Part shown: positions 29,039-29,259 of the stretch, one piece after another
How positions within the stretch are numbered: position 1 is the first letter of the stretch
How the letters are laid out: each line of letters starts with the position of its first letter
The notes under the pieces: generated by a model
What the model was told of the DNA's origin: nothing
Database searches by the model: none
The model's input: the letters and a program-made list of their open reading frames with translations, nothing else
Virus record (IMG/VR): IMGVR_UViG_3300045988_142641
Source: a virus
Lineage: Duplodnaviria > Heunggongvirae > Uroviricota > Caudoviricetes
Strand: one strand, 5' to 3'
DNA: 35,258 nucleotides
Translations under genes and position numbers: made by a program

Positions 29039-29259
29039 AGCGCCTCCTCAAGCAAGCATTTCTCCGAAGCTATAGATTACAAAACACTAACGGCAATTCC
29101 TAGCATTACCCACTCAATTCCATTAGAAAACTGACGTAGTACAGTTAGTTGAATATTATTGTGATGACGAATGCCAATCCTCTGATCACGCTGATTACAA
29201 TATCACAACTCCCCGCTCTCCGATTCACAGTATTCAGTGATACAGAATATCACCTCGTA

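Follow-up and report, generated by a model that had tools for sequence, protein, structure and literature searches.

A conserved bipartite block in the leader of a kinase–kinase–phosphatase cassette carried by a P2-like prophage

How is a kinase operon that sits directly behind the replication gene of a prophage transcribed, and which part of the DNA between the two might control it? The question is raised by a locus in a 35,258-nt stretch of DNA (the window, meaning the whole stretch analysed, to which all coordinates refer), where an initial annotation had taken a 220-bp AT-rich spacer between gene A and a phosphatase gene to suggest that the operon has its own promoter, possibly expressed in the lysogen as for tin and old in P2, and had singled out an inverted repeat just after the A stop as a possible operator or RNA structure.

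The window is a P2-like (Peduovirus-type) prophage of Escherichia coli. Its replication gene A (gpA; 29260–31587, minus strand; Pfam Phage_GPA, E=1.4e-122; ‘replication endonuclease’ in PGAP) is the last gene of the minus-strand early operon and ends in a TAG at 29262–29260, read directly from the sequence. A non-coding leader of 221 nt (29039–29259, minus strand) leads from this stop to the GTG of a gene for a PP2C-family phosphatase, a PfpC-like antitoxin (27872–29038, minus strand; Pfam PP2C_2, PF13672, E=4.7e-6, with the PGAP name and homologues in agreement). Two Ser/Thr kinase genes follow on the same strand: kinase 1, in the PfkB position (26815–27879; Pkinase, PF00069, E=1.7e-42, and PADLOC models), and the PfkA-like kinase 2 (25751–26818; PF00069, E=5.9e-45), whose C-terminal domain is putatively cold-shock-like. 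The operon thus lies on the strand of A with a spacer in between, as first annotated. The phosphatase and kinase 1 genes overlap by 8 nt (27872–27879) and the two kinase genes by an ATGA (26815–26818), overlaps that suggest translational coupling of the antidote and the toxins. The operon is closed by a strong intrinsic terminator, AAAAGCCCTCCAGTCCTGGAGGGCTTTTT (25666–25694, minus strand), immediately beyond which lie the presumed cos region and the convergent portal gene (24400–25434, plus strand); a second terminator, at 25440–25455 on the plus strand, serves the portal gene.

The gene order, with a PP2C phosphatase followed by two kinases between Phage_GPA and Phage_portal, marks the three cargo genes as a KKP (kinase-kinase-phosphatase) toxin-antitoxin and defence module (PMC11341870). 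The type system is PfpC-PfkB-PfkA of the Pseudomonas Pf6 prophage (Guo et al. 2024, PMC11341870); KKP modules have been described in P2, P4, Mu-like and Pf prophages, and the legend to Fig. 3g of that paper describes one in a P2-type prophage at the same position, between Phage_GPA and Phage_portal. The module of E. coli 15EC039, expressed from pTac, protects against T4, and its kinases are reported to be jointly toxic and to be neutralized by the phosphatase (PMC11341870). In the window, the PADLOC models mad6 and PD-T4-6, both for kinase-based defence, match both kinases, and the translated tail of kinase 2 contains YGFI (the GFI motif) together with a weak CSD match (E=0.0046) that at 17.2 bits does not reach the Pfam cut-off of 27. 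The FHA domain of PfkB finds no counterpart at the sequence level in kinase 1, whose C-terminal 105 residues match no Pfam family at E≤10 and which has no PDB sequence match below E=0.18, although a diverged FHA domain may lie beyond the reach of such sequence comparison. A DNA-binding domain was sought in the tail of the phosphatase and not found. Because KKP kinases are toxic and the outcome is set by the kinase:phosphatase ratio (PMC11341870), transcription of the cassette in a P2 lysogen and during induction bears on when the module fires; neither PMC11341870 nor PMC12328805 contains a native promoter map or a leader description for the enterobacterial modules.

Both the cassette type and its location were known beforehand: the site is the P2 A–portal cargo hotspot, described as the A-Q (gpA–portal) defence hotspot (Rousset et al. 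2022, PMC9122126; PMC13586616). Variable, compositionally distinct DNA lies here between conserved gpA and portal genes, and related phages carry other cargo at the same site, including Fic, a retron RT, DUF4238 and DUF4209. Homology with other P2-like phages stops near 29283–29288; since this places the recombination junction 21–26 nt inside the 3′ end of gene A, the alignments imply that the last ~7 codons of A (region 29260–29288) travel with the cargo. The cargo genes and the gap together make up a low-GC island (~25700–29280; GC 0.33–0.42, against 0.52–0.60 for the backbone). Within it the spacer, at a GC content of 0.412, stands above the three cargo genes (0.375) and below both gene A (0.538) and the window (0.502). 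The description of the spacer as a 220-bp AT-rich element is therefore correct in extent (221 bp at 29039–29259) and, at 41.2% GC, apt only in relative terms; as a signal, its AT-richness carries no weight, since the spacer is richer in GC than the cargo genes and simply has the general composition of the island. Leader DNA of this kind was found only with this cassette, in 14 of 5,426 complete E. coli genomes and in no phage record, and it is KKP cargo, not backbone DNA of the phage.

Two further observations concern cargo and its carriers. In E. coli NDM2, a 43-kb record annotated as a plasmid (NZ_CP083887.1) contains the same leader and cassette, of which the strain also has a chromosomal copy; this second copy may be an excised circular phage genome or an assembly artefact. 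The window itself has a second low-GC island (7000–11100; GC 0.35–0.40) inside the tail-gene region, with open reading frames at 7286–8155 (plus), 8646–9785 (minus) and 10112–11056 (plus) that have no Pfam or PADLOC match and an integrase fragment at 8275–8610 (minus), probably a second cargo hotspot with uncharacterized genes.

Within the leader, we consider first the inverted repeat, which is present as annotated: arms GTGATA and TATCAC around a 5-nt loop (cagaa) at 29237–29253, 7 nt after the A stop. As minus-strand RNA it would form a hairpin of 8 bp with a 3-nt loop (29236–29254, core 29237–29253; −6.7 kcal/mol) enclosed by a weak outer stem in which the A stop codon lies, the hairpin's own stem consisting of 2 G-C, 4 A-U and 2 G·U pairs, followed by GAAUACUGUG. 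Such an element could act as an operator, as a hairpin for RNA processing or stability where the A message ends, or as a weak terminator, and a role of this kind would accord with its place beside the stop codon, with the folding energy of the 38-nt stretch 29228–29265 in the window (−10.7 kcal/mol, z=−2.9 against shuffles) and with the retention of a 5-bp core (GGUGA/UCACU) and the outer stem in four of seven close relatives. Against this, the same 38-nt stretch reaches only z=−1.3 to +0.1 in five close relatives, and a perfect 6-bp repeat with a 3–10-nt loop, of which the spacer has one, occurs at least once in 27.7% of 5,000 dinucleotide shuffles of the spacer. Across seven leaders from close relatives (phosphatases 88–95% identical), the interval from −220 to −176 that holds the repeat is the least conserved 45-nt bin of the cassette (mean pairwise identity 0.79); identity from −85 to +50 is 0.95–0.99. 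The perfect 6-bp form is confined to the window's variant, one-sided changes breaking it even at 95% phosphatase identity; three of the eight inner pairs (50–62, 52–60 and 53–59) are unpaired in 3–6 of the 7 relatives with no compensatory change, and no measure of covariation among the seven leaders rose above its shuffle control. The repeat sequence is absent altogether from the Klebsiella, Serratia, Providencia and island loci. As a terminator it lacks a G+C-rich stem and a U-tract, and no minus-strand terminator was called after A. From its frequency in shuffles, its low conservation, the uncompensated breaks and the missing U-tract, we conclude that the repeat is real in sequence but a chance feature of fast-evolving junction DNA; a function as operator or RNA structure is very doubtful.

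The distal ~150 nt of the leader, next to the A stop, is as a whole fast-evolving junction DNA with no detectable function. The leader has no Rfam match, the sole sub-threshold hit (E=0.1) falling at 29321–29403, inside gene A, and folding of the whole leader revealed no excess stability (z=+0.2). A pseudogene remnant was considered and rejected: a 41-residue open frame in the distal leader has no tblastn match in phages, and no part of the spacer DNA is matched elsewhere in E. coli or in phages. On the antisense (plus) strand, positions 29131–29159 hold the leader's best consensus promoter match (CTGACG-17-TATTAT; 9/12 in the consensus scan, 11 bits by position weight matrix (PWM)), whose −10 is invariant in close relatives and whose −35 is not; the match is absent in other groups.

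The proximal part of the leader presents a different picture. We gathered genomic contexts for phosphatase homologues over a range of identities; relatives with at least 51% phosphatase identity provided 16 distinct leaders, whose spacers range from 221 to more than 900 bp and whose contexts are of three kinds. In P2-like prophages of Citrobacter, Enterobacter, Klebsiella and Serratia the cassette follows gpA (spacers of 221–347 bp); in Providencia and Proteus it follows a primase-type replication gene (~600 bp); and it also occurs in non-P2 islands, one of which has no gene closer upstream than a divergent integrase at 977 bp. Throughout, we find a conserved bipartite block, AATGCTAGGAATT-N10-TTTTGTAATCT, which in the window occupies 29107–29074 on the minus strand, 36–70 bases before the phosphatase start codon. 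Block 1, AATGCTAGGAATT (29095–29107), has the consensus A-A-Y-R-CTA-K-K-M-ATT, in which C, T, A and A, T are invariant in the 16 leaders; block 2, TTTTGTAATCT (29074–29084), has invariant TTTTGTA and CT around two middle hexamer positions that vary (TAGTCT, TAAGCT, TAACCT). The sequence between the blocks is variable and its length is fixed at 10 nt. Block 2 starts 45–47 nt before the GTG in every locus, so that all relatives down to 51% phosphatase identity have the block at −46±1, and eight of eight further metagenome loci, retrieved by a pattern confined to the coding sequence, also carry it. Upstream of block 1 the groups cannot be aligned, and the block is the only DNA upstream of the Shine–Dalgarno sequence common to all three contexts.

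Across eight groups, 16 of the 34 block positions are invariant, whereas none of 25 four-fold degenerate sites is, and pairwise identity at the latter is 0.33. Because so many positions are fixed where synonymous sites are saturated, the comparison indicates that the block is under strong purifying selection. Its range has a limit in a more distant KKP clade (48–49% identity; L105 and L154), which has a different leader without the block; a profile search of genome contigs with the phosphatase returned only still more distant relatives (≤39% identity), useless for leader comparison.

Several identities for the block were tried and set aside. A small conserved reading frame across it (MLGIAVSVL*) is interrupted by in-frame stops in loci L091 and L106, so the block is not coding. 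Nor is it a general regulatory motif: a scan of IMG/VR with a degenerate pattern returned six KKP loci and 31 AT-rich matches with no common context, about the number that we estimated by hand to arise by chance. An immunity-repressor operator was likewise rejected: the window holds no further copies of either block, none near the C/cox control region in particular, with counts at or below chance. RNAalifold leaves both blocks unpaired, a prediction that lends no support to an RNA structure. Compared by eye with the motifs of sigma-E, sigma-32, sigma-28, sigma-54 and sigma-S, and for Ogr (TGT-N12-ACA), LexA, CRP, TyrR, IHF, H-NS and the T4 MotA box, the block yielded no fit to all groups. A repeat-rich spacer of another kind occurs in a Providencia P2-like prophage (L096, 4500–4900), where the alignment shows a 604-bp KKP spacer full of iteron-like GGTTACA/TGTAACC repeats; lying after a primase-type replication gene, these may be that phage's origin, unrelated to the leader of the window.

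What, then, might read the block? We put the probability at roughly one half that it is a weak promoter carried by the cassette, possibly helped or controlled by a factor that reads its additional invariant bases. The layout of the block agrees with positions −40 to −7 of a promoter (TAGGAA-17-TAATCT), with a putative −35 region at 29102–29097 and a putative −10 at 29079–29074; block 1 would cover −40 to −28, and the variable N10 falls where a promoter spacer would. As in a sigma-70 −10 element, T−12, A−11 and T−7 are invariant in the 16 leaders, while −10 and −9 vary. The upstream part is less orthodox: TAGGAA matches TTGACA at three of six positions and is replaced by TATGAA or TATTAA in two groups, and the TG of the block directly adjoins the −10 hexamer, where one base would usually lie between them. 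A sigma-70 PWM gives the block 4.9 bits, compared with a mean of 9.4 and a 95th percentile of 12.5 for the best sites of shuffled leaders; nothing in the leader exceeded shuffle expectation in the PWM scan, and a consensus scan found no minus-strand match of at least 9/12 in the spacer, reproducing the earlier failure to discern a convincing sigma-70 −35/−10 by eye. The invariant C−8, G−24, C−36 and TTTTG run are unexplained by sigma-70 rules, so something other than, or besides, RNA polymerase may read the block.

A promoter of the operon's own is likely to lie in the leader, since the cassette sits behind gpA, behind a primase-type gene and in islands, each time with the block at a fixed distance, and since the island whose nearest upstream gene is a divergent integrase leaves the operon in need of one. 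The initial proposal of an independent promoter thus points in the right direction, in that the block stands fixed before the start codon in all contexts; the promoter itself we infer.

The poor sigma-70 score and the invariant positions outside sigma-70 rules would also suit a different arrangement, in which a host factor or a KKP protein reads the block as an operator or 5′-UTR element, the promoter being located in the lineage-specific DNA just upstream. There the Klebsiella group offers a better sigma-70-like site (xTGAAA-17-TAAAAT, 11.3 bits), ending 2 nt before block 1, which would place the block in the 5′ UTR; −10-like hexamers of other groups end at −62 to −74. Toxin-antitoxin-like modules are often autoregulated. 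KKP resembles such modules, and its last kinase carries a nucleic-acid-binding cold-shock-like domain, by the weak CSD match. The upstream candidates, though, vary from group to group in both sequence and position, and none of them scores above shuffle expectation; for the group of the window itself there is no convincing site upstream of block 1, the unpaired state of both blocks in RNAalifold gives no indication of an RNA structure, and the phosphatase tail has no detected DNA-binding domain. We regard this arrangement as possible, and clearly less probable than a promoter within the block. A more specific proposal, which we consider unlikely, is that the block, perhaps together with a hairpin masking the Shine–Dalgarno sequence (below), is the operator or mRNA target of a KKP component, such that the module would set its own phosphatase:kinase dosage; candidate readers are the cold-shock-like domain of the PfkA-type kinase and the lysine-rich tail of the phosphatase, possibly in a phosphorylation-dependent manner. 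If true, it would constitute an autoregulatory loop through nucleic-acid binding, so far undescribed for KKP.

The strand of the putative promoter deserves comment, because the opposite strand of the block allows an equally mediocre reading, TTACAA-18-TAGYRT (TAGCAT as the −10 in the window), from which RNA would run towards the end of gene A. Here every leader retains T, A and G at −12 to −10, and only the Providencia/Proteus pair lacks T at −7; the score resembles that of the forward reading (5.9 bits in L094). Transcription in this direction would nevertheless enter DNA that is unconserved between contexts, from a −35 matching at only three of six positions with an 18-nt spacer, and the fixed distance of the block is to the downstream start codon, not to anything upstream; we consider a plus-strand promoter highly improbable.

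A weak promoter in the block need not be the only source of operon transcripts. The terminator scan found no intrinsic terminator between A and the phosphatase gene, and the leader RNA is G-rich, not C-rich (C/G=0.54), with no C-rich Rho entry site; early transcription after induction is therefore likely to read through into the operon. With the operon co-directional with A and no terminator between them, read-through is an additional, not an alternative, route. Could it be the only one in this prophage, with expression coming solely from the early (Pe) operon through gene A? The shared strand, the leader devoid of an intrinsic terminator or C-rich stretch, and the lack of a consensus promoter would all be compatible with this. 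Yet a defence or toxin-antitoxin module silent in the lysogen would not protect it, whereas KKP modules do protect cells (PMC11341870); the same cassette occurs in islands with no co-directional upstream gene and behind unrelated genes, and the block is under strong purifying selection. We therefore doubt that read-through is the sole route.

Downstream of the block, the leader equips the phosphatase gene with a GTG start (29038–29036) preceded by the Shine–Dalgarno sequence GAGGAGG (29049–29043). An RNAalifold consensus from 11 loci places both in a possible hairpin with codons 4–9 (29011–29049, minus strand), in which GGAGG would pair with CCUUC (codons 8–9) and UGUGAG with CUUACG (codons 5–6). 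Pairing is possible in all 11 of these diverse loci, with 99% of cells paired, compared with 50–78% for slid controls, and, with synonymous sites elsewhere at saturation, the Leu CTT and Ser TCT codons hardly vary. The changes seen are only G-C/G-U and A-U/G-U switches, with no double (compensatory) changes, and the stability of single sequences is unremarkable (−12.3 kcal/mol, z=−0.6 in the window). That the hairpin dampens translation of the phosphatase is a lead, not a finding.

Taken together, these features suggest a simple model in which the proximal ~70 nt of the leader would serve as the cassette's own cis-regulatory region. The block would be a weak non-consensus promoter, with TAGGAA as its −35 region, a 17-nt spacer and TAATCT as its −10. 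Transcription would start near 29068–29064, where the position table places a semi-conserved CTTYGG 7–10 nt after the putative −10, to give a leader RNA of ~30 nt with a strong Shine–Dalgarno sequence and a GTG start perhaps partly masked by the small hairpin. From this promoter, kinases and phosphatase might be expressed at a low, steady level in the lysogen while the early promoter is repressed; upon induction, early transcription would continue into the operon and end at the strong terminator at 25694–25666. As a whole, the leader is an ordinary one for cargo genes, and its one modestly new feature is a cis element: a precisely bounded, non-consensus control block, strongly conserved and carried along with the cassette. 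The advance is a modest one, in which the search for the control region narrows from 221 bp to a block of ~35 bp, the block comparison supplies the exact bases to mutate and the inverted repeat drops out of consideration. The comparison also shows that the cassette moves between P2-type phages and other islands with an upstream control region and a terminator of its own.

Comparison with known systems places the locus in familiar surroundings. The module shares with those of Guo et al. the order of a phosphatase and then two kinases, the GFI-bearing, putatively cold-shock-like tail of the last kinase and the gpA–portal site; it differs in that Pfam detects no FHA domain in its middle kinase, and that paper, in which the native promoter of the enterobacterial modules is unmapped, describes neither leader, block nor Shine–Dalgarno hairpin. 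The setting likewise differs in nothing of kind from the P2 A-Q hotspot, with low-GC variable cargo between the gpA and portal genes and, in the window, a left junction 21–26 nt inside the end of gene A.

The analogy with tin and old of P2, drawn in the initial annotation, proves a loose one. Both loci hold non-essential anti-phage cargo in the interval from A to cos, expressed from a cargo promoter (a putative one for the operon studied here) and not from the phage lytic promoters. The old and tin genes, however, lie on the strand opposite to A, with mRNA starts mapped next to cosR, whereas the cargo of the window is co-directional with A, and no sequence is common to the block and the old promoter region (TTGAAT ... 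TAAAAA). In its putative architecture, the block also resembles another class. Weak, activator-dependent sigma-70 promoters of the lambda PRM type combine non-consensus −35 and −10 elements with A−11 and T−7, a 17-nt spacer and low basal strength. The block has the same non-consensus hexamers, retained A−11 and T−7 and 17-nt spacing; it differs from that class in its C−8, G−24, C−36 and TTTTG, which have no counterpart there, and in having no known activator.
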